This document shows, in pieces, positions 25,394 to 47,684 of a stretch of 64,000 nucleotides of DNA. The notes below the pieces were generated by a model. It was given only the letters and a program-made list of their open reading frames with translations, made no database searches and was not told the DNA's origin. The position numbers and the translations under genes were made by a program. Numbering within the stretch: position 1 is the stretch's first letter; each line of letters begins with the position of its first letter. The stretch comes from a virus. The DNA is taken from the IMG/VR virus record IMGVR_UViG_3300025543_000013, positions 12,475 through 76,474 of that record; one strand, written 5' to 3'.

Positions 25394-26137
25394 ATGATTA
25401 AATTATCAGAATTATTACACGAAGGTATCAATGACCCAGGTATTTTAAAAGCCGTTTTCTTAGCCGGAGGGCCTGGTTCAGGTAAAACCTATGTAGCCAA
25501 AGGTCTATTTGGTATTCCTGAACGACTAAACATATCCCAAACTGGTTTGAAAATGGTCAATTCTGATAAAGAACTCAAACATCTTTTAAACAAATACGGA
25601 TTCGGTACTGATTTAGACTCATTACCAGATGAAGTATTTTCAAATTTAACCAATCCTAAAGACCCAGAATATAGTGGATTGAGAACTTATGCAAAAGAAC
25701 TCACCAAAGAACGACAAAGACTTTATGCACAAGGTCGTTTAGGTATGATTATCGACGGAACCGGAGATGATTATCAAAAGATTGCACGAGAAAAGAAAGA
25801 ATTAGAAGATATCGGATACGATACTTATATGATTTTTGTCAACACTACATTAGAAGTAGCACTTGATAGAAATGAAAAAAGAGATAGAGTTTTACCTAAA
25901 CATATTGTTGCGGATTCTCACAAAGAAGTAGTTCGTAATATTGGTGGATTTCAAGGATTGTTTGGTTCTGGTAATTTTATGGTTGTTGATAACAATCAAT
26001 ATCGAACAGAAGAAGAAGCAACCAAACGATTCAATATGTTGGTTAAAAAAGGATTAGGTAAATTTATATCAGCACCCGTTAAAAATAAACGAGGACAAGC
26101 TTGGATACGACATAACAAACTATTAAAGGGGAAATAA
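25394..26137 (+). CDS. Zeta-toxin/AAA_33-like P-loop kinase with N-terminal MIKLSELLHE tag
   Basis: AGGPGSGKT Walker A, IIDGT, AL.RN..R.R lid. SD AGGA before ATG 25394. Confidence 0.8.
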   Translation: MIKLSELLHEGINDPGILKAVFLAGGPGSGKTYVAKGLFGIPERLNISQTGLKMVNSDKELKHLLNKYGFGTDLDSLPDEVFSNLTNPKDPEYSGLRTYAKELTKERQRLYAQGRLGMIIDGTGDDYQKIAREKKELEDIGYDTYMIFVNTTLEVALDRNEKRDRVLPKHIVADSHKEVVRNIGGFQGLFGSGNFMVVDNNQYRTEEEATKRFNMLVKKGLGKFISAPVKNKRGQAWIRHNKLLKGK

Positions 26138-26138
26138 A

Positions 26139-26621
26139 ATGTTAATATCATTTGACGAAATTATAGAAGTAACTTTACACCACGAAGGTGGATATGTTCA
26201 CGACCCAAATGACTTGGGTGGAGAAACCAACTTCGGTATTGCAAAAAGATTTTATCCAGATGTAGATATTAAAAATCTTACAGAAGACGAAGCAAAAGAA
26301 ATTTATCGTAGAGATTATTGGGATAAAAACAGAGTGGAAGAACTACCAGAACACCTTAGACATATATTTTTCGATATGTGTGTAAATCAAGGTAGAGGAA
26401 CCGCAGTAAAAATTTTACAACGAGCTTGTGTTGCTAAAGGAGCAGACATCGCAATTGACGGAGGTATGGGGCCAGGAACTATGAACGCAATCGAAACCTA
26501 CAAACCTTCCGCAGATAGAGTTCGTTGTTATAGATTAAAACATTATTATGATTTAGTAAATGCAAAACCAGAACAAGAAAGATTTTTGTTCGGTTGGTTT
26601 AAACGAGCAATATCAGTATAG
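26139..26621 (+). CDS. Glycoside hydrolase family 108 lysozyme (endolysin) with peptidoglycan-binding C-terminus
   Basis: HEGGYVHDPNDLGGETNFGI, Y...YW, FD..VNQG, DG..GP.T, F..GW..R. Confidence 0.9.
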   Translation: MLISFDEIIEVTLHHEGGYVHDPNDLGGETNFGIAKRFYPDVDIKNLTEDEAKEIYRRDYWDKNRVEELPEHLRHIFFDMCVNQGRGTAVKILQRACVAKGADIAIDGGMGPGTMNAIETYKPSADRVRCYRLKHYYDLVNAKPEQERFLFGWFKRAISV

Positions 26622-26631
26622 GAGAAAATAA

Positions 26632-26904
26632 ATGGCAACACCAGTTCAAGGTTCATTCATAGATAGAACTAAAAACATAGAGAGACCAAATTCATTTAAA
26701 GTTGTTAATAGTATTAATGACGCAATTTATGAACCAACAGGTTCTAATTTAAATTCAGCTTTTACCGTGAGTGGTGAAGGATATGAACTTAGAGGTTTAG
26801 ATGGTGGTTCAATAACAGGTGGATTAGCAAGTGGTAGTGTATACAATGTATCATTATCATATGTTAGTGCATCATCATTTGCAACTGTAAACTTATTTAG
26901 ATAA
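26632..26904 (+). CDS. Small hypothetical (possibly virion) protein
   Basis: SD AGGAG, Ser/Gly-rich beta composition. Confidence 0.65.
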   Translation: MATPVQGSFIDRTKNIERPNSFKVVNSINDAIYEPTGSNLNSAFTVSGEGYELRGLDGGSITGGLASGSVYNVSLSYVSASSFATVNLFR

Positions 26905-27281
26905 TGTCAGAACAAATATCACAGATTATACGAGAAGTCATCACAGAACTGATTGACGATAGTCGTTGTGTTCGTTGTGGTTCAATCACTAATGAAGACT
27001 TGAGAAAGTGGTTCGGTAAAGGTGGAGCCGGAGGAACAACCAAAGGTGGTTGGGACAGATATGGTTCAGACGGACAGAAACTTGGTAAATGTGGTGGTGG
27101 AAAAGAAGGTGGTGCATATGCCGCATGTTTAAGTGCCGAGAAAGCTCGTAAACTTGGCCCAGACGGAAGAGCAGCATTTGTTCGTCGTAAAAGACGAGAC
27201 CAAAAGAAAGCAGGCGATACCAAAAAAGGAAGACAAAGAACCAAAGGTAAAGCACCAGTAATGAGTAAAACAGGAGCATAA
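26904..27281 (+). CDS. Basic Gly/Lys-rich phage protein (DLRKWF...GGW...C...CL family)
   Basis: The domain begins right after ITNE. Coupled to its neighbours. Confidence 0.65.
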   Translation: MSEQISQIIREVITELIDDSRCVRCGSITNEDLRKWFGKGGAGGTTKGGWDRYGSDGQKLGKCGGGKEGGAYAACLSAEKARKLGPDGRAAFVRRKRRDQKKAGDTKKGRQRTKGKAPVMSKTGA

Positions 27282-27282
27282 G

Positions 27283-27771
27283 GTGATTAAATTACACGAC
27301 ATACTTAATGAAGCAGAAAAAAAAGGTTGTCCTTTACCAACACAAGATATTGATTTAAATTTAAAAAATCGTAATAAAGCATTTAAAAAATATAACTATG
27401 GGCCAGCAGACCCAAGACACGATTTAAATACAGATGTGGATAAATTAGATTATGCTAATTTAAAAGAAAGTGATTTTAAATCAAAAGAAGAATTACAAAA
27501 CTCACCAAACATTGAGTATTGGAAAAAATTACAGGATATCTACAATACAGAAGATATATTCGCAATCTTAAAACAAAGATGTGGTAATTGTGCAGCATTT
27601 AACATTACGGACAAAATGAGAGATTGTATTAAAAAAGGTATCGGAGATGAAGCACCAGCAGAACCAATTATTAAAGTTGGTGAAATTGGATATTGTAGAT
27701 TTTTAAAATTTAAATGTGCGGCAGCCAGAACTTGTCAAGCTTGGGTAAGCGGTGGGCCGATTAAAGACTAA
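27283..27771 (+). CDS. Cys-rich metal-binding protein with MIKLHDILNE tag
   Basis: RCGNCAAF...DC...GYC...KC...RTCQAW. GTG start. Confidence 0.65.
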   Translation: MIKLHDILNEAEKKGCPLPTQDIDLNLKNRNKAFKKYNYGPADPRHDLNTDVDKLDYANLKESDFKSKEELQNSPNIEYWKKLQDIYNTEDIFAILKQRCGNCAAFNITDKMRDCIKKGIGDEAPAEPIIKVGEIGYCRFLKFKCAAARTCQAWVSGGPIKD

Positions 27772-28088
27772 TGGCAGGAGATTGTTATCAAGCAAATGGT
27801 AATTTTATCATTACCAAAATGGGAGACAATGATTTCAAATTGTGTCACGGAGTTGCTTTATTAGCAAGTGATAAAAAACCTTTTGGTCATTGTTGGATAG
27901 AAAAGGGTGGTGCAATATTAGATTTTTCTAATGGTAAAAAAATTGCAACCACTAAAAAGAAATATTATGAATTGGGTGGAATACCAGTTTCAGGATATAA
28001 GAATTATTTTTACACACCTGCGGAAGCAGCAAAGAAAATGGTTGAAACAGGACATTGGGGGCCTTGGGATTCCAAACCACCGAGATAA
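27771..28088 (+). CDS. Small transglutaminase/papain-like Cys-His-Asp protein
   Basis: GDCY, LCHG, GHCWIE, ILDFS. Confidence 0.5.
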   Translation: MAGDCYQANGNFIITKMGDNDFKLCHGVALLASDKKPFGHCWIEKGGAILDFSNGKKIATTKKKYYELGGIPVSGYKNYFYTPAEAAKKMVETGHWGPWDSKPPR

Positions 28089-28091
28089 ATT

Positions 28092-29750
28092 ATGGCAGAA
28101 TTTTTTATAGATGAACCAAGAGAAATTGGAAAAAAAAGAGATAGATTATCTTCTCGTGAATTGAGTATGATAAAAGATAAGGCGTTTGAATCTTATAATG
28201 AGATGTTAAACTTGCCTAAATATAACAACCCGAAGGTAAATGAAATGATAGATATTACACCATCACATATTGAATTATTGAGAACTACTTTTGATACCGT
28301 CAAAGGTATCAATCCAAGTGGTGGTGCATACAAGAACTTAGTTGCATTTTTAGACAATCTAAGTCAAAGTTCATTAAAAAAATTATCCAATGCAAGAATT
28401 AAATTTGTTTCACCATTGGCAAAAAACAGATTAAATAAAAATGAAATGTTAAACAAACCTAATTATATTAGAAATGTAGCACCAATTCCGGCAAACCAAA
28501 AAGACGGAGAACATCAATATTATAATCCAGAAGTGGAAGAAGACAAAATTCCAGGTGGATTAGCCAAAGGAATGAGTTTAAATGATATTGCTAAAAAACA
28601 CAATGTAGATATTGAAGTGTTGAAAAAAGAATTCGTCAAAGGTGTGAAAACCGAAATGGAACACACCACAGATAAAGAAGTGGCAAAAGAAATTGCACTT
28701 GACCATATTTTTGAAGACCCAAAGTATTATACAAAGTTGGCAACAATAGAAGAAGATTGGTCAGACAAATACAAAAGAAGTATTGATTGCAACAACCCAA
28801 AAGGATTTAGTCAAAAGGCACATTGTCAAGGACGAGAAAAAAGAGAAGGAATTAATGAACGAGCACAACAAGCAGTATCGGGTGGAAAAGTTCATAAAAA
28901 TATTACAGGATTTAATTTACCATACAAAGGTAGAAAATACAAAGAAATAGATATGGAAGTTAAAAAAATTGACAACAAAACAGAAAAAGTTTTATTAAGA
29001 ATTTTAAATCCAAAAAATTTATTCGGACAACAAGTCGAAGTAACATTTAAAGAACTTCGTAGAGGCCCGTTTATGAAAACCGACACCAGTAAAGATGTTA
29101 AGGAGAATACTATGAAATCATTAAGTGAAATGATAAAAGAAATCACAATAGAAGAAAAGTTAAATTTATTTACGGAAAAGAATGTTCCGACAGACCCAGG
29201 TAAATGGGCATACTACAAAGCACAAGCTAAGAAAAAGTTTGATGTATATCCAAGTGCATATGCAAATGGATGGGCAGCAAAACAATATAAAGCAGCTGGT
29301 GGTGGTTGGAGAAAATCAAAAAGTGAATCCTTAGAAGAAGCTTGTTGGGTAGGATATAAACAAGTCGGTATGAAAGACAAAGGTGGAAAGAAAGTTCCTA
29401 ATTGTGTAAAAGAAATCACAGAAATATTTTACGAAGAAAATGGAAAAGGACACGGATACACTTTTGAATACATTAGAGAAAACGATTTAAACGAAGCAGA
29501 ATACCAAGGTCGTAAAGTTAAACTTGGTAAACCAATGCAAGGTGATGTCAAAAAATTTAAAGTATATGTTAAGAATCCAGAAGGAAATGTCGTCAAAGTA
29601 AACTTTGGACACAAAGGTAAAGACGGTGAAAAAACAATGAGAATTAGAAAATCTAATCCAGAGGCAAGAAAGAATTTTAGAGCAAGACATAATTGTGATA
29701 ATCCAGGCCCACGCCACAAAGCGAGATACTGGTCTTGTCGCAAATGGTAG
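28092..29750 (+). CDS. Modular polyprotein of short phage domains separated by [LIV]xE sites
   Basis: Modules include E.EHT.D...A.EIALDH..EDP.YY.KL, WS.KYKRSIDC.NPKGFSQKAHC, KFDVYPSAYANGW, CW.GYK..G.K.KGGK.VPNCV and VNFG...FRARHNC...ARYWSC. Confidence 0.75.
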   Translation: MAEFFIDEPREIGKKRDRLSSRELSMIKDKAFESYNEMLNLPKYNNPKVNEMIDITPSHIELLRTTFDTVKGINPSGGAYKNLVAFLDNLSQSSLKKLSNARIKFVSPLAKNRLNKNEMLNKPNYIRNVAPIPANQKDGEHQYYNPEVEEDKIPGGLAKGMSLNDIAKKHNVDIEVLKKEFVKGVKTEMEHTTDKEVAKEIALDHIFEDPKYYTKLATIEEDWSDKYKRSIDCNNPKGFSQKAHCQGREKREGINERAQQAVSGGKVHKNITGFNLPYKGRKYKEIDMEVKKIDNKTEKVLLRILNPKNLFGQQVEVTFKELRRGPFMKTDTSKDVKENTMKSLSEMIKEITIEEKLNLFTEKNVPTDPGKWAYYKAQAKKKFDVYPSAYANGWAAKQYKAAGGGWRKSKSESLEEACWVGYKQVGMKDKGGKKVPNCVKEITEIFYEENGKGHGYTFEYIRENDLNEAEYQGRKVKLGKPMQGDVKKFKVYVKNPEGNVVKVNFGHKGKDGEKTMRIRKSNPEARKNFRARHNCDNPGPRHKARYWSCRKW

Positions 29751-29757
29751 GAGAGTT

Positions 29758-32700
29758 ATGAAATCAAAACTAACAGAATGGTTAGTTAAACCTTATATCA
29801 ATGAAGGCGTTGAACTCGACATTGAAGTCGGTGATGACGTCTTGATGGGTAGGTTTAAAAACAAACGAGTCAAAGTCAAATCTATTGATTGGAATGACAA
29901 AGGTGATTTATTAATCAACGGAAGACCCGCATTAAAATTTAGAAAAGTAGACAATGATAGAAAATTACTACCGACTAAAAAGTCAGGTGAGGATTCCATA
30001 GAACCAGATTCCGATAGAAAAGGTATTGATGACGAATTCCCATATTACAAAACAGAAAACACAATGCACGAGTGTATTGCATTTTCTAAAAAGTTTGGAG
30101 ACGATATTGTATTGGGAAAAAATCGTGATAGAAATTACACACCAGAATTAAAAATCGTAAGAGAAATAAGTGGAAACGGAATAGAAGTTTGTTATGTTCA
30201 AGACCAAGATACAGATTGGTCAGAAGGTATGAACTCAAATGGTATTGGATTGGTTAATTCAGCATTATTTGTTAAACGAGATGAAAAAGATTATGATAAA
30301 TCTAAAAAGAAAAAGGCTCCTTCCAAAGACGGAATTCGTATAAGACACGCATTATCAAAAGATACACTACGAGATGTTGTGGAATCATTGGTTAAATTCG
30401 ACACAGGAGTTAAAGGACACACAATCGTAAGTGATGGTAAAAAAGTAGTGGTGATTGAAAACACCAGTAGAACAAAAGCATCAGTCAAAATACACGACAT
30501 ATCTAATTCAGTCGTTAGAACAAATCACGGACTTGAACATCCAGAACAAGGATATACAAGAGGGCCAGATAGAATTTCATCTCAATTGAGATTAAAAAAT
30601 GCACAAAACATTATTGATAATGAAAGTGATTACAAAAAATTATTTCCTAAATTTTATAACCATACACAAAATAAAGGCCCAAAATATGATGTCGTAAGAG
30701 CACAAAATAAATTATGGACATCAAGTCAAATTTTAATGAATTTAAATAAACGAGAAATGATGTTGTATTTAATTCCAGGAGCAGTCAAGTTTATTGGTGT
30801 GGAAAACAAATTACCAAAAGGATATGATAAAAAAATTAATTTAGTGGTTCGTGAATACGAACATAGTCCAAGTGATAAATACGGAACTTATGTTAAAACA
30901 ACTGAAAAACCAAAACCAAGTGCCATTAAAGATAAAGACATCAAAGTAGAAAGTTTCTTTGGATTAGAAGCAAAAAGAATTCCAAGAAAAAAAGGACAAC
31001 ATCAAGGTTCATCAAGTCATTCAGATTTATACACAGATGAAAATCCAAAAGGAACAATACACGGATTAAAGTTTGCAACCGTAGATGACGCAAAAAAATC
31101 CGTTAGTAAAATAAAAGGTAGTGGTAAATCTCACGCTCACAAAATACAAGCGGCAGTTGCTATGGAACAACGAGCAAGAGAAATGGGTAAAACTGCACAA
31201 GCAGCAGTTTATCGTAGTTATATCAACCAGATGAAAAAGAAGACCAAAGAAAAGAATGAGGGATTTTTTGGATTAGGAGCAGGAGACATTCCTTCACCAA
31301 GTCGTAAAATGGTAAAGAAAATGAAAAAGAAAGGAAATACATCAGTTCCTTATGGTAGTGGATATAAAAAAGTAAACGAACAAAAATCAAAAATTAAAAA
31401 AGTAATCGCAATATATCCAGGTCGTTTTCAACCATTCGGCCCACATCATAAAAAAGTATTTGACGCATTATCAAGTAAATTTGATGACGCTTACATCACA
31501 ACATCAAACATCAAACAACCACCAAGACACCCAATGAACTTTAATGAAAAAGTTCGTCATATGGTAAAAATGGGTGTTCCAAAAAATAAAATCGTTCAAG
31601 AAAAAAGTCCTTATGTGGCAAATAATTTATTGAGAAAGTTTGATAAAGATACCACCGCAGTTGTTTATGTGTTTGGTGCAAAAGACGCCGGTAGATTAGC
31701 AGGTGGAACCAAGAAATCAGGTGGTAAAACTTATTATCAAGATTTAAAATCAAATATCAATGATTTAAAAGGATATGAAGAACACGGATACATTTATACC
31801 GCACCGCATGTAAATGTTAGTGGTATATCAAGTGGAACAGAAATCCGTAATTTATTAGGTAGTCCAAAGTTTGATGAAAAGAAAAGACAACAAATCTTTA
31901 AAAAAACATTTGGTTATTTTGACCAAGGTTTGTATAATATGTTGACCAATAAATTTAAAAAATTATTTGAATTTTATCAACAACCACAAGTAAAAAAATT
32001 ATTGAAAGAAGTCAGTGCATTAGGAACTCATTTTAACGGAAGTGATTTAGATGATGAGGGTATGTATGATTTTTTTGGGTCTATTGATGATTATGTTAGA
32101 GTATCACCAATGCATGCAGAAATTTTAGGTTGGGAGTTAATTGGATTTCCAATTCGTGACACAGAAGATATGATGTTTACTATTATGTCAGATGATTATG
32201 AAAAAGATAGAGTTGATACTACGACTTTTGGTAGAACGATTAATCAAAACACAAGAAATACTAAATCAGTAGATAATCCATTTCCAAAATATAAAGAACA
32301 TATGAGAAATGTTGTGGGTAATTTAGGTTGGGAAATAATTAAATTTTACGGAGAAGAATCATTTACCAAGATGAAAGATTCACCAACACTAAATAAAAAA
32401 GATGTATATAAAGGTGTTGACCATATTAAAGATAAATTAGCAGAAGAATTTGTTGAAGATGTAAAAAAAGTCTTTTTAATTGAAGGTGGAGCATACGGAC
32501 ATATGAATCACCCGTTTGACGATAATAATTTGACGTTTTCAGATTTGAAGAATATAATTATATATGGGTTAGAAGGAACTTTAAATCGTGAAGATAATGT
32601 TTCTGAAAAACTTGACGGACAAAACCTAATGGTAAGTTGGGTTGACGGAAATTTAAGAGCAGCCCGAAACAAAGGACACCTAAAAAATGGTGGTAAAACA

Positions 32701-33708
32701 GCACCAACAACCGCAGGTATCGCAAGTATGTTTGCCGGTAGAGGAAACATCAAAACTGCATTTGTTGGAGCAATGAAAGATTTAGAAAATGCGATTGGTA
32801 AATTATCCAATCCACAAAAAGAAAAAATATTTGGTAATGGAACCAAATGGATGAACTTGGAGGTTATATATCCACAAACAGCAAATGTAATCGATTATGA
32901 TGTCGCAGAAATTATATTTCACGGAACAATCGAATATGATAAAACCGGTAGACAAATAGGATATTCAAAAGAAGCAGCTCGTATGTTACAAGGTATGATA
33001 CAACAAATAAACCAAAACATTCAAAAAAGATTTAAAATCGGTAAACCAAACTTTTTACAATTGAATAAAGTTCAAGATTTTAGTAAAAAGAAATCTACAT
33101 TTTTAGGTAAATTAAATAAATTACAAGCACAATACGGATTAAAAGATAATGATAGATTAGGTCAGTATCACGAATCATTTTGGAGAGAATATATTTTTAA
33201 TGCAGCAAAACAATTTAAAGTTTCGTTGAAACAAAATGAATTAGTAAATTTAACGAATCGTTGGGCATACTTTGATAAATCATATAAAGTTCCAGAAATC
33301 AAAGAAGACTTTAAAGACAGACCAGAATTTATGAAATGGATATTAGATACAGATAAACTTGACCACAATAAAATGTGGAAAGAAAATATCAAACCATTTG
33401 AAATATTATTTTTTCAAGTAGGAGCAGAAATTCTAAAAAATATGTCAGGATTTTTAGCAGTATCACCGGATAAAGCAGTTCAAAAAATTAAACAAGATGT
33501 AACAAATGCATTAAAAGATTTACAAAAACCAGATAATGTAGAAAAGTTATCTAAATTAAAAACACAAATAGAAAAATTAGAAGCTATCGGGGGTTCAAGT
33601 GCAATCGTTCCAAGTGAAGGATTGGTATTTAAATACAATGGTAGTCTTTACAAGTTTACCGGAGCATTTGCACCGATTAATCAAATACTCGGTAGTTTAA
33701 GATTTTAA
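29758..33708 (+). CDS. 1316-aa multidomain polyprotein: KOW-like domain, Ntn-hydrolase, DLYTDENP domain, HIGH nucleotidyltransferase, unknown domain, KxDG ligase-like domain
   Basis: Start at ATG 29758 behind SD AGGAG. Motifs: E|CIAF...GKNRD...EGMN, YPGRFQPF...SSGTEIR, GHMNHPFD...EKLDGQN...EGLVF. Confidence 0.8.
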   Translation: MKSKLTEWLVKPYINEGVELDIEVGDDVLMGRFKNKRVKVKSIDWNDKGDLLINGRPALKFRKVDNDRKLLPTKKSGEDSIEPDSDRKGIDDEFPYYKTENTMHECIAFSKKFGDDIVLGKNRDRNYTPELKIVREISGNGIEVCYVQDQDTDWSEGMNSNGIGLVNSALFVKRDEKDYDKSKKKKAPSKDGIRIRHALSKDTLRDVVESLVKFDTGVKGHTIVSDGKKVVVIENTSRTKASVKIHDISNSVVRTNHGLEHPEQGYTRGPDRISSQLRLKNAQNIIDNESDYKKLFPKFYNHTQNKGPKYDVVRAQNKLWTSSQILMNLNKREMMLYLIPGAVKFIGVENKLPKGYDKKINLVVREYEHSPSDKYGTYVKTTEKPKPSAIKDKDIKVESFFGLEAKRIPRKKGQHQGSSSHSDLYTDENPKGTIHGLKFATVDDAKKSVSKIKGSGKSHAHKIQAAVAMEQRAREMGKTAQAAVYRSYINQMKKKTKEKNEGFFGLGAGDIPSPSRKMVKKMKKKGNTSVPYGSGYKKVNEQKSKIKKVIAIYPGRFQPFGPHHKKVFDALSSKFDDAYITTSNIKQPPRHPMNFNEKVRHMVKMGVPKNKIVQEKSPYVANNLLRKFDKDTTAVVYVFGAKDAGRLAGGTKKSGGKTYYQDLKSNINDLKGYEEHGYIYTAPHVNVSGISSGTEIRNLLGSPKFDEKKRQQIFKKTFGYFDQGLYNMLTNKFKKLFEFYQQPQVKKLLKEVSALGTHFNGSDLDDEGMYDFFGSIDDYVRVSPMHAEILGWELIGFPIRDTEDMMFTIMSDDYEKDRVDTTTFGRTINQNTRNTKSVDNPFPKYKEHMRNVVGNLGWEIIKFYGEESFTKMKDSPTLNKKDVYKGVDHIKDKLAEEFVEDVKKVFLIEGGAYGHMNHPFDDNNLTFSDLKNIIIYGLEGTLNREDNVSEKLDGQNLMVSWVDGNLRAARNKGHLKNGGKTAPTTAGIASMFAGRGNIKTAFVGAMKDLENAIGKLSNPQKEKIFGNGTKWMNLEVIYPQTANVIDYDVAEIIFHGTIEYDKTGRQIGYSKEAARMLQGMIQQINQNIQKRFKIGKPNFLQLNKVQDFSKKKSTFLGKLNKLQAQYGLKDNDRLGQYHESFWREYIFNAAKQFKVSLKQNELVNLTNRWAYFDKSYKVPEIKEDFKDRPEFMKWILDTDKLDHNKMWKENIKPFEILFFQVGAEILKNMSGFLAVSPDKAVQKIKQDVTNALKDLQKPDNVEKLSKLKTQIEKLEAIGGSSAIVPSEGLVFKYNGSLYKFTGAFAPINQILGSLRF

Positions 33709-33720
33709 GGAGAATAGGTT

Positions 33721-34574: not shown

Positions 34575-34578
34575 TATA

Positions 34579-34586
34579 TATTTATA
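34579..34586 (+). promoter_or_regulatory. Putative late promoter TATTTATA (3 nt before the ATG, so possibly a leaderless mRNA)
   Basis: Recurrent motif. No SD before ATG 34590. Confidence 0.45.
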
Positions 34587-34589
34587 TAT

Positions 34590-34970
34590 ATGAGATATTT
34601 AATTTACATATTATTTTTTGGATTAGTTTTTTCACAAGACGCAACCAAAACCTACACTTTTACCGAAGATGAAGTTTTGGGATTCACTAATCGTATCAAA
34701 GAATTAGAACTAAAAGATAGTTTGAATGTTTCTTTGGTAATGGATTTAGAATCACAAATCAAATTATATGAGGAAAACTCAGTAATTGATTCAATGTTGA
34801 TTGAGAATAAAACTAATCAAATTAATCTACTGAAAGACACCACCAAACTTCTTGAACAAAAAGTAAAACTCGTTCAACCTAAATGGTATGAAAACAAATG
34901 GTTATACTTTACATATGGAGTTTTGATGACTGCTACATCAGTTAAGTTAGCAGGTCAAATAGTAGATTAA
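34590..34970 (+). CDS. Secreted or membrane coiled-coil protein (possible spanin-like)
   Basis: Signal-peptide-like N-terminus, coiled coil, KWYE.KW plus a C-terminal hydrophobic segment. Confidence 0.5.
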   Translation: MRYLIYILFFGLVFSQDATKTYTFTEDEVLGFTNRIKELELKDSLNVSLVMDLESQIKLYEENSVIDSMLIENKTNQINLLKDTTKLLEQKVKLVQPKWYENKWLYFTYGVLMTATSVKLAGQIVD

Positions 34971-36541
34971 TGGCAGAACAAATAAAAGAAGTAATCAAAG
35001 CCGAATATATAAAGTGTGCACAAGACCCAGCATACTTTATGAAAAAGTTTTGTATGATACAACACCCGATACGAGGAAAAATACCTTTTGAGTTGTATGA
35101 TTTCCAAGAGAAAACGGTTCGTGAATTTAAAGACAATCGTTTTAACATTATTTTGAAATCAAGACAATTGGGTATTTCTACTTTATCCGCCGGTTATTCT
35201 TTGTGGTTGATGACATTTTTCCAAGATAAAAACATCTTGGTAATTGCAACCAAACAAGAAGTAGCCAAAAACTTGGTAACGAAAGTTCGTGTTATGCACG
35301 CAAATTTACCGAGTTGGTTGAAACAAAGATGTGTTGAGGACAATAAATTAAATCTTCGTTATATGAATGGTAGTCAAATCAAGGCAGTATCATCAGGACC
35401 AGAGGCCGCTCGTTCGGAAGCTCTATCTTTGTTGATATTAGATGAGGCAGCATTCATTGACAAGATTGACGAAATATGGACTGCGTCACAACAAACCTTG
35501 ACAACCGGTGGTAGTTGTATCGCTTTATCAACACCGAATGGTGTGGGTAATTGGTTTCACAAAACTTGGATAGATGCTGAAGAAGCAACCGGTATGTTTA
35601 ATCCGATTAAACTACATTGGACGGTTCATCCAGATAGAACTCAAGAGTGGAGAGATGAACAAGATACTTTACTTGGGCCAAGTTCAGCAGCACAAGAATG
35701 TGATTGTGACTTCTTGACTTCTGGTACTGGGGTAATTGACCCAATCATTTTGGAAAAAATGAGAAAAAGTTTATGTATTGACCCAATAGAAAAAAGAGGT
35801 ATCGATAGTAATATGTGGGTTTGGGAACCACCAAACTATTCAAAAGATTATTTGGTATGTGCTGATGTGGGTCGTGGAGATTCAGCAGACTATTCTGCAT
35901 TTCACGTGATTGAGTTAGAAACTTTAACACAAGTGGCAGAATATAAAGGTCGTATCAATACAAAAGATTTTGGTAATATGTTGGTTAGTGTGGCAACAGA
36001 ATATAATGATGCTTTACTAATTATAGAAAACAACAATATTGGTTGGGCAACAATCCAACAGGTAATCGATAGAGATTATCCAAATTTATTTTATACAAGT
36101 AAAGACTTACAATATGTTGATGTTCAACATCAAGTCACGAATAAACATTATCGTGAAGAAAAAAATATGGTGGCCGGTTTTTCAACGACTTCTAAGACCA
36201 GACCACTAATTATTAGTAAGTTAGAAGAATTTTTTAGAGAAGAAAGTGTAGTGATTCGTTCAAATCGTTTGATTGATGAATTATTGACTTTCGTCTATAT
36301 AAATAACAGAGCACAAGCGATGAACGGATACAATGATGATTTAGTTATGTCGTTTGCAATTGGACTTTGGGTTCGTGATACGGCATTAAGACTACGAACA
36401 CAAGGTGTGGAATTAACAAAGAAAACTCTATCCAAAATGATGGATAATCAGGGTTTATACACTCAAGAAGACGCAAGAAAAAATGATTCTTGGGAGTGGG
36501 ACACAGGAAAAAATAAAGAGTCATTAGATTGGCTTTTATAA
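34970..36541 (+). CDS. terL: Terminase large subunit (T4 gp17-like)
   Basis: LKSRQLGIST Walker A, LILDEAAF Walker B, STPNG, ADVGRG..DYS and DDLVMS nuclease motifs. Confidence 0.97.
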   Translation: MAEQIKEVIKAEYIKCAQDPAYFMKKFCMIQHPIRGKIPFELYDFQEKTVREFKDNRFNIILKSRQLGISTLSAGYSLWLMTFFQDKNILVIATKQEVAKNLVTKVRVMHANLPSWLKQRCVEDNKLNLRYMNGSQIKAVSSGPEAARSEALSLLILDEAAFIDKIDEIWTASQQTLTTGGSCIALSTPNGVGNWFHKTWIDAEEATGMFNPIKLHWTVHPDRTQEWRDEQDTLLGPSSAAQECDCDFLTSGTGVIDPIILEKMRKSLCIDPIEKRGIDSNMWVWEPPNYSKDYLVCADVGRGDSADYSAFHVIELETLTQVAEYKGRINTKDFGNMLVSVATEYNDALLIIENNNIGWATIQQVIDRDYPNLFYTSKDLQYVDVQHQVTNKHYREEKNMVAGFSTTSKTRPLIISKLEEFFREESVVIRSNRLIDELLTFVYINNRAQAMNGYNDDLVMSFAIGLWVRDTALRLRTQGVELTKKTLSKMMDNQGLYTQEDARKNDSWEWDTGKNKESLDWLL

Positions 36542-36554
36542 AGTGAGGTAAAAA

Positions 36555-38417
36555 ATGGCAGATACAACATTATTTGGGAGACTACGAAGATTATTTGCAA
36601 CAAATGTAATTGTTCGTAATGTCGGTGGTAAAAAACTAAAAATCGCCGATACAGACCAAGTTCAAAAACAGGTTAAATCACACCTTGTTGATAGATATAC
36701 AAAACTACACAACAACTTAGATTTAGTCGGAACAGGTTATTCCACCGTTCATCAAATAATGGCGGCAAGATTGGCATTATTCAAAGATTATGAGTCAATG
36801 GATTCCGACCCAATTATTTCATCAGCGTTGGACATTTATTCAGATGAATCCACTATGAAAGGTGAATACGGAGATGTAATTAAGATTAAATCTGAAAATG
36901 AAAACATTAAAGAAATTCTACATAATTTGTTTTATGATATTATGAATGTTGAGTTCAATTTATGGCCTTGGGTTCGTAATATGGTAAAGTATGGAGATTT
37001 CTTTTTATACTTAGATGTTCAAGAACAATATGGTATTACCAATGTAGTTCCATTATCACCTTATGAAATCATAAGAGCAGAAGGTGAAGACCCAACTAAT
37101 CCTTATTATACAAAATTTTATTTAGAAAGTATTGAAGGAGCACACCCTTACTTCGGACAACAAAGAAGTGGTAAAGGAAAAATAGAATTTGAAAATTTCC
37201 AAATTGCACATTTTAGAATGGCTAATGATAGTAATTTCTTACCTTATGGTAAATCTATGATTGAATCTACTCGTAAAATTTGGAAACAATTAACACTTAT
37301 GGAAGACGCAATGTTAATTCACAGAATTATGAGAGCACCTTCTAAACGAGTATTCAAAATTGATATTGGAAACATTCCACCAAATGAAGTTGACAATTAT
37401 ATGCAAAGAATTATCAACAAGATGAAGAAAACACCATTTGTTGATGAATCAACCGGTGAATATAATTTAAAATACAATATACAAAACTTAACAGAAGATT
37501 TCTTCTTACCGGTTCGTGGTGGAGATTCAGGAACAGAAATCAATGAATTAGGTGGTATTGATTATGATTCAACCGAAGATGTTGAATATCTAAAAAGTAA
37601 ACTTTTAGCATCACTAAGAGTACCGAAAGCATTCTTAGGATTTGATGAAAATGTTGGTGGTAAAGCAACCTTAGCAGCAGAAGATGTTAGATTCGCAAGA
37701 ACCATTGAAAGAATACAAAGAATTATTGTAAGTGAATTAACAAAGATAGCAGTTGTTCACTTGTATTCACAAGGATACACCGACGCAGACTTGGTAAACT
37801 TTGAATTAGAATTAGCAAGTCCTTCAACAATGTATGAACAAGAAAAGATTGAATTATGGGGACAGAAAGTTACATTGGCTCGTGATATGTTGAGTGATAA
37901 AATTCTACCTTATAATTGGATTTATGATAACATTTTTAATTTTTCACAAGAAGAAAAAATTCAAATTGAAAATGAAATCATTGAAGACCAAAAACAAAAA
38001 TTCAGACACTCACAGATTGAAATGGAAGGTAATGACCCAATGAATACCGGTGAGGCAGTAGGAACACCAAGTAGTATGGCAACTATCGGTATCGGTGCAG
38101 AAGACCAAGCAACACCACCCGAAACCGCAGCAGGTTCCATATTCGACCCAATGTATGACGGAGAAGACGACAGACCAGAAGACCAACAAGGTGGTCGTCC
38201 ACAAGAGATGAACCACTATGGAAAAGATAGTGGAGCAAGAGGTCGTGACCCATTAGGGAAACAAACTAAAAACAGACGACCTTTAGCACTCGCTCACTAC
38301 GACGCATTAAAGAAAACAATGGGTAATAAGTCAAAGGACATACTGAACGAAACCAAACAAGTAGATGAATTAAAAGAAGAATATAATGAATATACTAAGG
38401 AAAACGGAGAGAAATAA
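36555..38417 (+). CDS. gp20: Portal protein (T4 gp20-like)
   Basis: EDAMLIHRIMRAP.KRVF.IDIGN.P, EDFFLPVRGG, L.VPK.FL. Confidence 0.95.
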   Translation: MADTTLFGRLRRLFATNVIVRNVGGKKLKIADTDQVQKQVKSHLVDRYTKLHNNLDLVGTGYSTVHQIMAARLALFKDYESMDSDPIISSALDIYSDESTMKGEYGDVIKIKSENENIKEILHNLFYDIMNVEFNLWPWVRNMVKYGDFFLYLDVQEQYGITNVVPLSPYEIIRAEGEDPTNPYYTKFYLESIEGAHPYFGQQRSGKGKIEFENFQIAHFRMANDSNFLPYGKSMIESTRKIWKQLTLMEDAMLIHRIMRAPSKRVFKIDIGNIPPNEVDNYMQRIINKMKKTPFVDESTGEYNLKYNIQNLTEDFFLPVRGGDSGTEINELGGIDYDSTEDVEYLKSKLLASLRVPKAFLGFDENVGGKATLAAEDVRFARTIERIQRIIVSELTKIAVVHLYSQGYTDADLVNFELELASPSTMYEQEKIELWGQKVTLARDMLSDKILPYNWIYDNIFNFSQEEKIQIENEIIEDQKQKFRHSQIEMEGNDPMNTGEAVGTPSSMATIGIGAEDQATPPETAAGSIFDPMYDGEDDRPEDQQGGRPQEMNHYGKDSGARGRDPLGKQTKNRRPLALAHYDALKKTMGNKSKDILNETKQVDELKEEYNEYTKENGEK

Positions 38418-38439
38418 TACCGATTTTTCCTAAGTTTTA

Positions 38440-38447
38440 TATTTATT
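38440..38447 (+). promoter_or_regulatory. Putative late promoter TATTTATT
   Basis: Recurrent intergenic motif. Confidence 0.6.
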
Positions 38448-38481
38448 ATTGATAAAAAACACAAAATACTTTGGAGCTCAA

Positions 38482-39354: not shown

Positions 39355-40723
39355 ACTCAAAGAAATCATTAGACACTTAGTTGTTCAAGAACTAAGAAAA
39401 GATGATATCGAAGAAGCATCAACAACTGCTTCTGCCGGTGCAGCAAATCCAATGGGAACCGGTATTCATTACGATACACCAAAAGCATTCTCAAGTGGTT
39501 CAGCAGTTGGACACAAAAGTCCAGAAGTCGGTGGATATAAAAAAATCAAAGAAGATAAAGACATTGGTCACCAAGACGACGAACCAGATATGTTGAAATC
39601 TACTGCATTGGAAATCCAAGAGTATGGTAAAAAACTATACGACGCATTAGATAAATACGACAAGATGGAAGACGAAGTTGATTTTCCTAATTGGTGGCAG
39701 TCAAAACTAATCGTTGCAAAAGATTATCTACAAAAAGCATATCATTATTTAAATTCAGAAGAAAAGAAAGACGGAGTTCAAGAATCAATCACCGGTTCAG
39801 ACAGAAAAGAATTACTACAAATCGGTAAAGAAATCAAAGATAACTTGATAAAACATCATTCAGGTCTTAGTGGAAATGAAAGAATGTTGACACAAGCAAT
39901 AGGTTCAACATTTATGTCTATGGGATTTTCACCAGATAACAAAAATTATCAAAACTACAAAAAATACTTTCCAAAAAACTTTAATAGTTCATCAGTTCAA
40001 AAATTAGCTGGTATACTACAAAAGGAAAAAGATACCGTTAGAGCAACATTTTTTAAACAAGTTGTTAAAGAATCAATAAATGAAAAAACATCACCAAACG
40101 AAATGTATGATGATATGGTAAAAACTTTAAACACATCAAATCAAAAAAAGGCATTACAAAGATTAATAGATGAGTTTGAAATCGGTAGAGTTTATTATAT
40201 GTTTTCAACAAATAGACGAGGATTTTTCCAAGCAGTTTTAACCGCAGAAGCATTGATGAAAGCAAAAAATCTAAAAGAAGTCACTCAACAAGAAATTGAT
40301 GCGGTAAACAAACTTGTTAAAAGTTTTGATGTATTACGAAAAGAATATCAAAAAATCACCAACACAGGTGATAAAACACTTAAAGACAAAATATTCAATA
40401 ATTATTATGAATATATCCAAGTGGCTCAAAAAGAAATGGAAAGACTTGCAGGAATTTTAAAAACCAAACAAATGATAGGTGAGGGTCGTTATCACGAATG
40501 GAGAAACGACGAATCCCTAACACCAAAACAAAAGATTGGTCAATCCGTAAAAGAAATTAGAGATTCATTAAACGAATTAGACAAAACAATCAAAATGAAT
40601 TTAAAATTAAAAACAGAATTAAATATGAGTTCTCAAGATTATTGGAAGAACACACACAAAGCACTAACCAAAATTTCTGAAAGGTTAGTTAAAATGGCAA
40701 ACAAAGTAGGAAATTTAAAATAA
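39329..40723 (+). CDS. Modular head-associated protein with internal xxE junctions
   Basis: DIEE|ASTT, KIKE|DKD, VQE|SITG, ESINE|KTS, NLKE|VTQ, MIGE|GRY. Confidence 0.6.
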   Translation: MSNHDKIAKLKEIIRHLVVQELRKDDIEEASTTASAGAANPMGTGIHYDTPKAFSSGSAVGHKSPEVGGYKKIKEDKDIGHQDDEPDMLKSTALEIQEYGKKLYDALDKYDKMEDEVDFPNWWQSKLIVAKDYLQKAYHYLNSEEKKDGVQESITGSDRKELLQIGKEIKDNLIKHHSGLSGNERMLTQAIGSTFMSMGFSPDNKNYQNYKKYFPKNFNSSSVQKLAGILQKEKDTVRATFFKQVVKESINEKTSPNEMYDDMVKTLNTSNQKKALQRLIDEFEIGRVYYMFSTNRRGFFQAVLTAEALMKAKNLKEVTQQEIDAVNKLVKSFDVLRKEYQKITNTGDKTLKDKIFNNYYEYIQVAQKEMERLAGILKTKQMIGEGRYHEWRNDESLTPKQKIGQSVKEIRDSLNELDKTIKMNLKLKTELNMSSQDYWKNTHKALTKISERLVKMANKVGNLK

Positions 40724-41346
40724 TGAAACAAGTTATCGTAGATTACACACCATTTAATGTTTCAGCAACTCAAATCAATGAGTCAATGAAAGAAAACAAC
40801 GGAAAGTTGATTGTAAAAGGTGTATTACAAAGAGCAGAAGCAAAAAATCAAAATGGTAGAGTATATCCAAGAGATATTTTAGTTCGTGAATCTAAAAAAT
40901 ACAACGAAAATTTTGTAAGTCAAAACAGAGCACTCGGTGAATTAGACCACCCAGATAGTTCCGTAGTTAATTTACAAAATGTTTCTCACAATGTCAAGGA
41001 AATGCATTTCGAAGGTGACAATTTAGTCGGAACCGTAGAAATCTTGACAACACCAAGTGGTAATATCTTAAAAGAGCTATTTAGAAATGGTATCAAATTA
41101 GGTATTAGTTCACGAGGATTGGGTAGTGTCGAAATGGTACAAGAAGCCAACGGAGACACCGTATCAAAAGTCGGTGATGACTTTGAATTAATCGCTTTTG
41201 ATTTTGTTTCCAATCCTTCAACTCACGGAGCATTCTTATATCCACAAAAAATGAATGAGTCCGTAGACAACACCTTAACCGGTAGAACTTGTGGAGATTA
41301 TTGTAAGGCAGAAAATATAATTAATTCAATTATTAGAGGCGAATAA
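40723..41346 (+). CDS. gp21: Prohead core protease (T4 gp21-like)
   Basis: NQNGRVYP, ALGELDHP, VSH, GISSRGLGS, FDFVSNPSTHGA. Confidence 0.95.
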   Translation: MKQVIVDYTPFNVSATQINESMKENNGKLIVKGVLQRAEAKNQNGRVYPRDILVRESKKYNENFVSQNRALGELDHPDSSVVNLQNVSHNVKEMHFEGDNLVGTVEILTTPSGNILKELFRNGIKLGISSRGLGSVEMVQEANGDTVSKVGDDFELIAFDFVSNPSTHGAFLYPQKMNESVDNTLTGRTCGDYCKAENIINSIIRGE

Positions 41347-41741
41347 TGGACTTACGAGAATTATCAAAAATCACAACAAGATACACCAATCGTTTAGATG
41401 AAGCAATGAAAATCAAAGGTGCTAATGGTAAAATGGTTGAAGTTCCAAGTGAATACGGAAGAATAATGAGTGGAATCGATAGAGTGATGTCAAAATTTAG
41501 TCCACGAGGAGTTATGTTTGGATATCAAAGATATCACAAACTAAAACCAAATGATGAATATAGTGGTTCAATTATTTTAAAAAATCCGTTATCTAAAAAA
41601 GATACTGATGATGTTATGAAACATCTTAAAAGTGCAGGTAGTTCATTAGGAGTTAAATTTGAAAAAATTACATTTAATCCAGATAGAAATGAACCATTTG
41701 TTGAATTTAGAATAGATGACGATAGTTTAATGGTGAGATAG
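41346..41741 (+). CDS. Hypothetical putative head cargo protein
   Basis: Leader ends RLDE|AMKI, the same junction as in 44098-44535. Confidence 0.6.
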   Translation: MDLRELSKITTRYTNRLDEAMKIKGANGKMVEVPSEYGRIMSGIDRVMSKFSPRGVMFGYQRYHKLKPNDEYSGSIILKNPLSKKDTDDVMKHLKSAGSSLGVKFEKITFNPDRNEPFVEFRIDDDSLMVR

Positions 41742-41744
41742 AAA

Positions 41745-44096: not shown

Positions 44097-44097
44097 A

Positions 44098-44535
44098 ATG
44101 GATAAAAAATTAGCAATGAAAATAAGTGATTCTTGGAAAGACTTTCGTTTAAATTCTTTAACAGAAGCAATGAAAATTTTCCCAGCTGGAGCACAACACG
44201 GATTTGATTTAACAGATTTCAAACCAAGAGGATTTGAAAAGTTTTTAACTGCATTAGGTATTCCTAAAGTGGCAAAAGGTTCATCAACCGGAGTAAGTTG
44301 GTCTGCAGGAAATAATTTTTATTGGAGAAACAAAGATATTATTATCATTACTGCAAACAATCCAATTACAGGTCAATATTATGCACCAGACAGAAGAAGT
44401 CCAGAAAAGAATTACGCATCATATGTGGGAATTGAAACAAAAAATCCAGATGATATGGAAAGAGTGGTTAAATTATTTAAACAACACACATCTTATCGTA
44501 AAGGTGAATCAAAAGGTAGAAGGGATTTTGTATAA
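44098..44535 (+). CDS. Hypothetical putative head cargo protein
   Basis: Leader ends SLTE|AMKI. Confidence 0.6.
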   Translation: MDKKLAMKISDSWKDFRLNSLTEAMKIFPAGAQHGFDLTDFKPRGFEKFLTALGIPKVAKGSSTGVSWSAGNNFYWRNKDIIIITANNPITGQYYAPDRRSPEKNYASYVGIETKNPDDMERVVKLFKQHTSYRKGESKGRRDFV

Positions 44536-45587: not shown

Positions 45588-45850
45588 TGATTAAATTAAA
45601 AAACATATTAACAGAAAATGATTTAACTTTTGTTTCAAAAATAATCGGTAAACCAGTTCGTGATATCGAAAGATTTCTTGACAAGAATAAAAAATTTCGT
45701 TCGGGTCAATTATACGATTATCTTGACTTAGCTTACGATAATCAAGAAAGAAAAGAACGTGGAGAAGAAATTGTTAAGGCGATGAAAGGTGATAGTAAAG
45801 CACTTAAAGAATTAAATAGATTATTAAAATATTTTGGTAAAGATTACTGA
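45587..45850 (+). CDS. Small protein with MIKLKNILTE tag
   Basis: Shared N-terminal tag. Confidence 0.7.
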   Translation: MIKLKNILTENDLTFVSKIIGKPVRDIERFLDKNKKFRSGQLYDYLDLAYDNQERKERGEEIVKAMKGDSKALKELNRLLKYFGKDY

Positions 45851-45852
45851 TA

Positions 45853-46107
45853 ATGATTAAATTAAAAAACATATTATCCGAACAAGACAACACCATTGAT
45901 AAAAAAGAATGGGAAAAAGTCAGCACAACCATTTATGACGGAATGGATACTTTGTTTTTTAAAGGTGTTAAGTATTTAAGAGATTACGATAGGTCAAACT
46001 TACCACCAAAAGAAAAAAGAATGTTAACTGACTTTTTCAATGATTTCTCAGCACTTCAAAGAAGATTTGGAAAAATAGAAAGAGAAATTGACAGGTATGC
46101 AAAATGA
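45853..46107 (+). CDS. Small protein with MIKLKNILSE tag
   Basis: The first 24 nt are identical to 45587-45610; the rest is unrelated. Confidence 0.7.
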   Translation: MIKLKNILSEQDNTIDKKEWEKVSTTIYDGMDTLFFKGVKYLRDYDRSNLPPKEKRMLTDFFNDFSALQRRFGKIEREIDRYAK

Positions 46108-46619
46108 TTAAATTAAAATCTATATTACAAGAAGAAATGAATCCAAGAGACAAACGAGAGTTTGAAGCAGCAGCTCGTGGTATCGAAACTAATTTAGAAT
46201 ACATCAAAGAAGAAGTCACAAGACTTGTCAAACTACTCAATAAAGAAGGTATGAGAAAGTCAGCAAACGAACTTCAAATATCATACAAAAGACGAGTATT
46301 AGAATTTGGATTAGATGTAAAAAACATTACAAGACAACACATTGGAGAAGCAACAACAGGATTTACAGACGCAGGTAGAGGATATCAAAACAAAGAAACT
46401 CAAACCTTTTCAGTAAACGCAGTTAAAGACGCAAGTAAACAAGTTGGTAAATTACAACAAAGTGTTGTTGGACAATTTATCAAAGATATCAATCAGAAAA
46501 AATATGATGCTATGGACTTGGTTCGTGCAATCAAAACCACACCATTGGGTGACGCATCATTTAGTAAAAAAGATTTTTTTATGTCTTTGTTTGATTTGAT
46601 TAAAAAACGAACAAGATGA
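46104..46619 (+). CDS. Two-module protein with MIKLKSILQE tag
   Basis: Shared tag, internal HIGE|ATT junction. Confidence 0.7.
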   Translation: MIKLKSILQEEMNPRDKREFEAAARGIETNLEYIKEEVTRLVKLLNKEGMRKSANELQISYKRRVLEFGLDVKNITRQHIGEATTGFTDAGRGYQNKETQTFSVNAVKDASKQVGKLQQSVVGQFIKDINQKKYDAMDLVRAIKTTPLGDASFSKKDFFMSLFDLIKKRTR

Positions 46620-46627
46620 TATTTATA
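46620..46627 (+). promoter_or_regulatory. Putative late promoter TATTTATA
   Basis: Recurrent intergenic motif. Confidence 0.6.
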
Positions 46628-46644
46628 TACAAGGAGAAAACAAA

Positions 46645-47418
46645 ATGGCTAAATTAAAAAAATTAATCAAAGAAAACTTCTCATTAGTCGGTGGGGTAGT
46701 TTCAACACCAGCAATAGGTGGTGGGTATACTTCTTTATCAAGAATCGTTAAAGAAAAATATGGTGAAACACCAACACAAAAGATTACTTCTAAACAAGTA
46801 GCAGAAGCATTGAGAAATTATAATCAAATTGGTAAATCACTTTATCAACAACAATCATTAAAAGAAACTGCAAAAAGATTATCATCAATCGCAGAAATGG
46901 CAGCTTCTCACACATTACAAGAAACAGAAGATTGGTTTGATAAAGTTACGGTTTCTCGTAATATGAAAGAATTAACCAATCACTCAAAAGCATTTTCAAA
47001 AATAGCAGAAGAAGCATCATCCGTTCAACAAAGATTAGCCAGTTTGTATGAAGATATGGGTATGATTCTAAATCGTTATTATGATATTCCAGAAAGTGAA
47101 GAAAAGGATAAAGAAGAATACGGAAGTAATACAATTGAAGAAGGTGATTATGAAGAATTCTTCCAATCAGCAATGAAAAAATTTGGTGTATCTTCACCTG
47201 ATGATTTTAAAACTGATGAAGAAAAGAAAAAGTTCTTCAATTATGTTGATAAAAATTATCAAGCAAAATCAGAAGGCAAAGTATATGAAGGTGGGCCAGG
47301 AAGTGGTAGACCAGGTGGTAAGATGCCACAACCAAGTGATTTCGGTGGAAATATGGATAAATACTTTGATGCGTTAAACAAAAGAATGGCTGACGACGAA
47401 AAAAGAAAGAAAAAATAA
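46645..47418 (+). CDS. Head-associated protein with MAKLKKLIKE tag and appended modules
   Basis: DWFDKVTV.RNMKEL...LYEDMG..L.RYY core, then TIEE|GDYEEFF.SAMKKFGV.SP and VYE|GGPGSG modules. SD AGGAG. Confidence 0.7.
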   Translation: MAKLKKLIKENFSLVGGVVSTPAIGGGYTSLSRIVKEKYGETPTQKITSKQVAEALRNYNQIGKSLYQQQSLKETAKRLSSIAEMAASHTLQETEDWFDKVTVSRNMKELTNHSKAFSKIAEEASSVQQRLASLYEDMGMILNRYYDIPESEEKDKEEYGSNTIEEGDYEEFFQSAMKKFGVSSPDDFKTDEEKKKFFNYVDKNYQAKSEGKVYEGGPGSGRPGGKMPQPSDFGGNMDKYFDALNKRMADDEKRKKK

Positions 47419-47684
47419 TGAAACTTAAAAAACTATTAAACGAAAATCTTTGGAACGAAAGAAAGTTTGGTGAGTCATTACCAACACTTGAAGACACTAC
47501 CAAAGCATATAAATTAAAACAAGAACAAGAAATCAACGAAGAACCAATCGTTGAAAACAATTCATCACTTAAAGCAAAAATGATTCGACATATACAAGAT
47601 ATGGTAAAATATAGTGATAGACTTGGTAGTGATGAAATTGATGAATTAAAAGAATTGTTAAAATTAGTGCAACAAATCAGATAA
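47418..47684 (+). CDS. Small protein with MKLKKLLNE tag
   Basis: Shared tag, W.ERKFGE.LPTL. Confidence 0.65.
   Translation: MKLKKLLNENLWNERKFGESLPTLEDTTKAYKLKQEQEINEEPIVENNSSLKAKMIRHIQDMVKYSDRLGSDEIDELKELLKLVQQIR

Follow-up and report, generated by a model that had tools for sequence, protein, structure and literature searches.

Phage T4 has a capsid targeting sequence (CTS) that consists of the 10 residues MKTYQEFIAE (PMC8442874). Mutants of the CTS showed that targeting depends mainly on residues 4 and 7 and processing on residues 8 and 10; with Asp at position 10, targeting persists and cutting is lost (PMC9026906). The T4 protease gp21 cleaves after L or I-x-E. It removes a 65-residue propeptide from gp23, and the core proteins gp67 and gp68 are likewise processed by gp21 (PMC9026906). 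The catalytic triad of the gp21 family is His, Ser and Asp (PMC5694885). The internal proteins of T-even phages have only the CTS in common, and the CTS may be a general route by which varied proteins of T4-like phages are loaded (PMC3012670, PMC9026906). Here we describe a comparable peptide, the tag, in a 64,000-nucleotide stretch of DNA from an uncultured marine phage (the window; positions 12,475 to 76,474 of IMG/VR virus record IMGVR_UViG_3300025543_000013). Like the T4 CTS, which is carried by IPI, IPII, IPIII and Alt and removed by gp21, the tag is a 10-residue N-terminal peptide common to otherwise unrelated proteins. We read it, with a probability of about 75%, as a lineage-specific, T4-style head-targeting propeptide that would be cut by a protease of the S77 family.

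The tag has the consensus M-[I/A]-K-[L/I]-x-x-[L/I]-[L/I]-x-E and stands at the start of 8 of the 68 genes called in the window; one copy is a 9-mer. All eight peptides were found on the + strand where the preliminary description of this DNA had placed them. The tagged genes, numbered as candidate cargo genes, are as follows (aa, amino acids; pI, isoelectric point; position 1 is the first letter of the window).

25394–26137, + strand: cargo 1, tag MIKLSELLHE (25394–25423), then a Zeta-toxin/AAA_33-type P-loop kinase; mature pI 9.5
27283–27771, + strand: cargo 2, GTG start, tag MIKLHDILNE, mature part of 152 aa
44535–45587, + strand: cargo 3, tag MIKIKDIIKE, then a conserved protein of 340 aa
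45587–45850, + strand: cargo 4, tag MIKLKNILTE, basic mature part of 77 aa
45853–46107, + strand: cargo 5, tag MIKLKNILSE, basic mature part of 74 aa
46104–46619, + strand: cargo 6, tag MIKLKSILQE, basic mature part of 161 aa
46645–47418, + strand: cargo 7, variant tag MAKLKKLIKE, mature part of 247 aa, pI 5.9
47418–47684, + strand: cargo 8, 9-residue tag MKLKKLLNE, then a second module W-N-E-RKFGESLPT; belongs to the largest tagged family

The core of the motif, K[LI]..[LI][LI].E, begins at residue 2 or 3 in 8 of the 68 genes, compared with 0.003 N-terminal cases expected from composition. Internally it occurs just twice in 20,504 residues. The preliminary observation of a common N-terminal peptide is thus borne out; the core was defined post hoc, after the data had been seen, and we deem the margin overwhelming. 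All eight tags end in [LI]-x-E. A six-frame scan of the whole contig gave no additional tag copy at the start of an open reading frame (ORF). None of the other 60 genes in the window is tagged, including the highly expressed capsid, portal and sheath genes and those of the glycan island. The tag is confined to a subset of genes, and its absence from glycan-island and tail genes was described correctly. Similarity had also been said to stop at the Glu. This holds for the eight proteins of the window, which showed no similarity in pairwise blastp after removal of the tag (all E > 0.04). It does not hold for the family of the gene at 47418, whose members in relatives share a second module after the tag.

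Scores from a position-specific scoring matrix (PSSM), whose training set included the window's own tags, were bimodal. The eight tags scored 15.7–26.4, one internal look-alike in an SDR-type sugar enzyme scored 16.2, and all others scored 8 or less. The look-alike, TIKLKPLLDE, lies at 24202–24231 (residues 265–274 of gene 23410–24369) and is probably due to chance, since it is not at an ORF start. The peptide MKSLSEMIKE at 29112, previously listed as an internal copy, is present in the sequence but has a PSSM score of only 0.1, and therefore we did not count it as a tag. We also rejected a Sec/Tat or lipoprotein signal peptide. As read from the sequence, the tag has 10 residues, 3–5 of them charged, and no hydrophobic run; a signal peptide calls for a hydrophobic core of at least 7 residues and a signal-peptidase site. 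The mature parts are basic in 6 of the 8 proteins, with pI values of 8.4–9.7 compared with a genome median of 5.9.

The tag-encoding DNA was compared across 72 distinct copies, taken from the window and from relatives. Positions outside the search pattern are still conserved, with Ile at position 2 in 65 of the 72 and Lys at position 5 in 63 of the 72. Conservation collapses at positions 11–12. Position 4 was fixed by the search pattern, and for this reason its conservation is only partly independent. The codons vary synonymously (AAA/AAG, TTA/CTT/CTA/TTG/CTC, GAA/GAG and ATT/ATC/ATA), and GTG and TTG starts occur. In an independent seed test on related loci, hydrophobic-hydrophobic-x-E followed at positions 7–10 in 80 of 106 ORF starts that begin with [start]-I-K-L. 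The same seed was followed by this ending in 11 of 399 cases elsewhere on the same strand and in 0 of 241 cases on the opposite strand.

A protease search of IMG/VR gave at least 592 relatives, of which we analysed the best 80 loci. These loci contain 90 tagged ORF starts, all located 0–5 kb downstream of the protease, in a sample of 485 kb upstream and 275 kb downstream. A second search was anchored on the tag DNA only and so is unbiased as to the protease. It gave at least 119 stretches, and 115 of the 122 matches listed lie at ORF starts. Clade markers are present on the same fragment in 69 of the listed matches, and the protease in 25 of the listed loci. For five records with no marker in the fetched fragment, we found an S77 protease elsewhere in four; the fifth is a fragment of 8% completeness. 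All three complete genomes among these marker-less records (173, 296 and 369 kb) have an S77 protease. The complete relatives (173–369 kb) carry 7–11 strict tag copies each together with the S77 protease.

Pooled from the matches listed, the distinct tagged proteins number 272 and fall into 108 sequence families when clustered, without the tag, by single linkage at E < 1e-4. When one representative per family was compared with Pfam, the tagged families included an Fe/Mn superoxide dismutase, two NUDIX hydrolases, two Zeta/AAA_33 kinases, a RimK-type ATP-grasp protein, an M23 peptidase fused to a phage lysozyme, an HD protein and a GNAT protein. A tagged 2H phosphoesterase exceeds the cut-off of 2_5_RNA_ligase2 and is below that of Acb1. 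The tagged superoxide dismutase has a 9-residue tag, and its residue 13 aligns to residue 4 of a solved superoxide dismutase. The tag is thus a pure N-terminal add-on to a complete canonical protein. Because it is attached to more than 100 unrelated families, complete canonical enzymes among them, the tag behaves as the portable label that was first suggested. In general, the earlier interpretation was supported in all parts open to sequence analysis, apart from the internal copy at 29112 and the end of similarity at the Glu.

In the largest tagged family, that of 47418 (relatives include L047:4563, L047:4942 and L047:5343), the tag is directly followed by W-x(1-3)-RKFGEPLPT. A hydrophobic-x-E lies 5–7 residues after the RKFGEPLPT module in 26 of the 41 members. 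Its members end in differing, mosaic C-termini, examples being a CxCGxxCC module and an EGPD...KKELQ helix module. The tag and W-x(1-3)-RKFGEPLPT could together form a two-part leader of about 30 residues.

Tag variants also occur in relatives such as L045 and L036, with Asp at position 10 (MIKLKELIKD^ECHCG..., where the caret, here and below, marks the predicted or corresponding cutting position) or with Glu shifted to position 9. Since Asp10 in T4 permits targeting and blocks cutting, proteins with Asp10 tags may by analogy stay tethered or uncut.

A protease was said to be encoded in the middle of the cluster, and the relevant head genes and motifs of the window are given below.

40723–41346, + strand: gp21-family prohead maturation protease (Peptidase_S77); PF03420 2e-27, 96.4 bits compared with a cut-off of 27; phrog_207 2.7e-50
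48059–49210, + strand: acidic, repetitive putative scaffold/core protein in which [LIVM]-x-E occurs 20 times; directly upstream of the capsid gene
49227–50876, + strand: gp23-type major capsid protein; Pfam Gp23 4.3e-78
49404–49415, + strand: predicted capsid maturation site L-I-Q-E63^A; second candidate V-L-L-E54
25353–25361, + strand: promoter-like motif TATATTTAT, just upstream of the first tagged gene (25394)

The gene at 40723 does encode a Peptidase_S77 of the T4 gp21 family. It matches the T4 gp21 structure 5JBL at 2.4e-13, and the blocks with His (ELDHP), Ser (SRGLGS) and Asp (D-F-V) are aligned. We presume that it is the enzyme that removes the tag. Six cargo genes lie between the protease gene and the putative scaffold gene. 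At the predicted capsid site, 16 relatives keep Q-L-I-x-E^[AST]. In the alignment with mature T4 gp23*, residue 29 of the latter corresponds to residue 79 of the present capsid protein, so that the T4 cut falls within about 12 residues of the predicted site. The predicted capsid maturation site and the end of the tag have the same shape, hydrophobic-hydrophobic-x-Glu.

By analogy with T4, we infer that the tagged proteins are docked, cut, retained and injected. They would probably be made late, given that TATATTTAT is found upstream of head genes, tail genes and the first tagged gene. The tag would probably form a short amphipathic helix with M1, L4, I/L7 and L/I8 on its hydrophobic face, and this helix would dock the newly made protein onto the scaffolding core during prohead assembly. 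The gp21-type S77 protease, once activated in the prohead, would cut after Glu10 within hydrophobic-hydrophobic-x-Glu. The tag would then leave and the mature protein would remain in the head with the DNA. At infection most of the mature cargo would be ejected into the host, and some tagged proteins may be core components only. A label that is short and self-contained would explain how evolution attached it to many unrelated proteins, complete enzymes included.

Several points weigh against this reading. The consensus here, MIKLKxILxE, has no more in common with MKTYQEFIAE than M1, E10 and the pattern of hydrophobic residues. Of the eight mature parts, two are acidic. The gene at 48059–49210 is conserved in relatives; since it has no Pfam or PHROG match, we infer its presumed role as scaffold and docking partner of the tag from its position and composition. 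Linkage of the tagged genes to head genes is not universal: in G003, a complete relative, a long distance separates them from the head module. Cultured distant relatives have only looser and heterogeneous tags, in 8 of 44 head-proximal genes of Flavobacterium phage immuto and 3 of 35 of Microcystis phage Mel-JY01, compared with 4.3% expected. The phage collection contained no cultured member of the clade, and in the literature searched we found no virion proteome or N-terminal mapping for it. The same literature gave no virion proteome of immuto or Mel-JY01 and no mention of the tag peptides.

The most serious qualification concerns the fate of the cargo. The tag could target proteins to the prohead core and be cut by the protease, while many or most of its carriers serve in assembly or in the core, are degraded or only fill the head, and are no effectors delivered to the host. 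The families of 44535 and 46645 may be of this kind and are the main candidates: they are conserved, single-copy and located in the head module, and they have no enzyme domain. The two acidic mature parts and the processing of T4 gp67 and gp68 by gp21 (PMC9026906) point the same way. However, many tagged proteins are complete enzymes with no plausible role in assembly (the superoxide dismutase, NUDIX hydrolases, kinases, 2H phosphoesterase, GNAT, HD and M23-lysozyme proteins), and the repertoire differs from genome to genome, which fits accessory effectors. We consider this explanation unlikely.

It is quite improbable that the 30 conserved nucleotides act mainly as a block of DNA homology for the recombination of cassettes between co-infecting phages, with the peptide being secondary. 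ATGATTAAATTAAAA is identical at many gene starts, and the tagged genes stand in variable arrays with mosaic modules. However, the peptide is kept despite the synonymous changes and the alternative starts, the block is only 15–30 nt long, and the hydrophobic-x-Glu ending in common with the capsid site would be left unexplained. A role in recombination could be an added benefit of the tag and is no full alternative.

We find still less credible that the tag is a recognition leader for machinery unrelated to the head, for example a radical-SAM maturase, a chaperone, or a pathway for secretion or to the membrane. Some radical-SAM protein is encoded in all 5 genomes checked. The radical-SAM genes are, however, 17–36 kb from the tagged genes in the window and roughly 10 to 200 kb in G001 and G003. 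Among the matches listed, a homologue of either radical-SAM gene of the window occurs in 1 of the 115 tag-anchored loci, compared with 25 for the protease. We rejected the radical-SAM leader on this lack of tight linkage, and the charge and shortness of the tag disfavour export.

The objection raised with the original claim, namely that AT-rich codon bias or optimised initiation yields the motif as a side effect, is effectively refuted by the motif's gene specificity and its conservation at the amino-acid level: in a genome of about 31% G+C, where many genes start with MK or MKK, the tag is missing from all 60 other genes (highly expressed ones included), positions 7–10 are conserved as amino acids, and the strict pattern has 3–11 matches in each of five genomes whereas the reversed pattern has 0.

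Beyond a head-targeting propeptide, we hold at even odds a broader reading, in which the near-invariant tag would reveal, from sequence only, which proteins are packed into the head and injected by an abundant clade of marine T4-like and jumbo phages with no cultured member. These would amount to more than 100 families, with superoxide dismutase, NUDIX hydrolases, kinases, an Acb1/LigT-type 2H phosphoesterase and a peptidoglycan hydrolase among them. A subset would have the two-part leader (tag and W-x-RKFGEPLPT), the second part of which would be a previously undescribed module for targeting, retention or ejection. Apart from a few model systems, little is known of the proteins that phages inject, since their discovery calls for purified virions and mass spectrometry. 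If the tag is a label for head loading, sequence alone would suffice to list the proteins injected by an entire clade of uncultured marine phages. Such a list would name candidates for host takeover and counter-defence whose action precedes the expression of any phage gene. As a second, independent case of a short T4-type address label, the tag would be useful for studying binding to the scaffolding core, and in non-coliphage systems it could serve protein delivery as a packaging tag.

The window is part of a 76.5-kb virus contig with a CheckV completeness of 42%. Its G+C content is about 31% and every gene is on the + strand. Judged by its gp21-type S77 protease, gp20-type portal and gp23-type capsid protein, the phage is a distant, uncultured, marine relative of T4. 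The profiles Peptidase_S77, Portal_T4 and Gp23 all exceed their Pfam cut-offs in the window. The nearest matches of the capsid protein are an uncultured 484-kb phage (57%), Mel-JY01 (56%) and the immuto group (52%); identity to T-even-like phages is only about 30%. Further landmarks are the following.

34970–36541, + strand: large terminase, head module, T4 type
36555–38417, + strand: gp20-type portal; Pfam Portal_T4 1e-75; marks the T4-type head module
47702–47902, + strand: ribosomal protein bS21; phrog_21469 3.4e-10; within the head module, flanked by cargo genes and the scaffold gene
60599–62962, + strand: tail sheath

Mel-JY01 has a bS21 gene at the same place in its head module. The motif TATATTTAT has 6 copies in the window (25353, 34577, 38438, 47940, 60186 and 63667), all intergenic and upstream of head, tail or tagged genes, and is probably part of a late-type promoter. 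A 15-nt promoter guess showed no enrichment, unlike the shorter TATATTTAT.

Six of the eight cargo proteins have no match in PHROGs and Pfam. Cargo 1 matches Zeta_toxin (4.9e-9) and AAA_33 (8.6e-7) in Pfam. Its kinase gave no significant sequence match in PDB, and neither the NadR-like nor the cytidylyltransferase-like proteins of immuto and Mel-JY01 are its homologues. Cargo 2, with no Pfam or PHROG match, has a good ribosome-binding site, AGGAG, 8–14 nt upstream of its start, and the previous stop lies 1 nt before it. Between these two genes, downstream of the same TATATTTAT motif, lies an endolysin-like gene (26139–26621; phrog_315, 1.3e-48). It starts with MLISFDEIIE and so ends this stretch in I-I-E; the stretch may well be part of the enzyme fold, as in GH108-type muramidases, and not a tag. 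In the family of cargo 7, the MAKLK variant is kept in relatives.

The family of cargo 3 is abundant in metagenomes (381 clusters). It has a second invariant site after the tag, I-M-T-E17^A-F, which in the alignment reads hydrophobic-hydrophobic-T-E17^(A/S)-F. The homologue P0108 has no tag and yet keeps L-V-V-E^S-F. From this pattern, the true mature N-terminus of the family may be residue 18. The AlphaFold2 model of the family has a mean predicted local distance difference test (pLDDT) score of 60.6. Residues 1–17 are below 50, with a short helix at 4–10, and lie apart from the fold. This modelled segment is compatible with a flexible propeptide, for which it is weak evidence. Foldseek gave no match of the model to PDB at E ≤ 0.001, the ESM Atlas gave sub-threshold leads only (all below 0.9), and the phage collection contained no homologue in cultured phages.

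Two untagged head-module proteins, encoded at 41346–41741 and 44098–44535, have N-terminal peptides of 19–23 residues that end in L-x-E^AMKI (RLDE^AMKIK and SLTE^AMKIF). A relative of the 41346–41741 protein starts with MIKLKEISKITTRYTNRL. These peptides may be longer propeptides of core proteins.

The window also encodes a 1316-aa protein (29758–33708), whose C-terminal half has a cytidylyltransferase-like domain followed by a large conserved domain. Residues 547–1316 are homologous to a stand-alone 639-aa gene product of Mel-JY01 that starts with MGKLINILLSE. In the 1316-aa protein the homologous module is internal, after K-V-N-E, and the last 419 residues are 41% identical to the tag-bearing gene of Mel-JY01. 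This homology supports reading the protein as putative head cargo that would be cut at x-x-E joints.

In two complete relatives the same tagged gene start is found at both ends, at G003:C1:103–132 and 172939–172968, and at G002:C1:6416 and 368072. These duplicated copies fit terminal repeats that begin in or near the cargo-gene cluster.

Compared with T4, both phages have an S77/gp21-family protease and gp20/gp23-type head genes, and in both the mature cargo is mostly basic. The T4 CTS has hydrophobic residues at 4, 7 and 8, Glu at 10 and an L or I-x-E end; the tag has L4, I/L7, L/I8 and E10, so that its conserved positions coincide with those mapped in T4 for targeting (4 and 7) and processing (8 and 10). 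The sequence itself, MIKLKxILxE, is the lineage's own, as the preliminary description held. Since only M1, E10 and the hydrophobic pattern are in common, the likeness is functional and not demonstrably homologous, and the tag would be either an analogue of the T4 CTS in function or a form of it that has diverged strongly. The repertoire is larger here, with 8 tagged proteins in a partial genome, 7–11 strict copies in complete relatives and 108 families, compared with a handful in T4. The cargo here includes complete housekeeping-type enzymes, six cargo genes stand between protease and scaffold, and a subset has a second conserved module after the tag; unlike the T4 system, the present one is known from sequence alone.

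In the giant phages phiKZ and SPN3US, gp175/gp245 process many proteins inside the head, both ejection proteins and those of the inner body. The likeness to the tag lies in the gp21-related protease, in a motif ending in Glu, and in N-terminal propeptides proposed to target such proteins to the prohead (PMC5694885). However, most of these propeptides have 20 to more than 100 residues and they are non-uniform, whereas the tag is a near-invariant 10-mer. The polymorphic ip loci of T-even phages likewise contain variable, unrelated genes united only by a conserved leader (PMC3012670, PMC9026906). The present clade differs from them in being a marine lineage of about 31% G+C, with a capsid protein about 30% identical, another leader and far more families. 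The principle that a short leader loads varied proteins is already known, because reviews state it (PMC3012670, PMC9026906). New here are another consensus, a marine lineage far removed from T4, and a cargo set of this size and with these enzymes.

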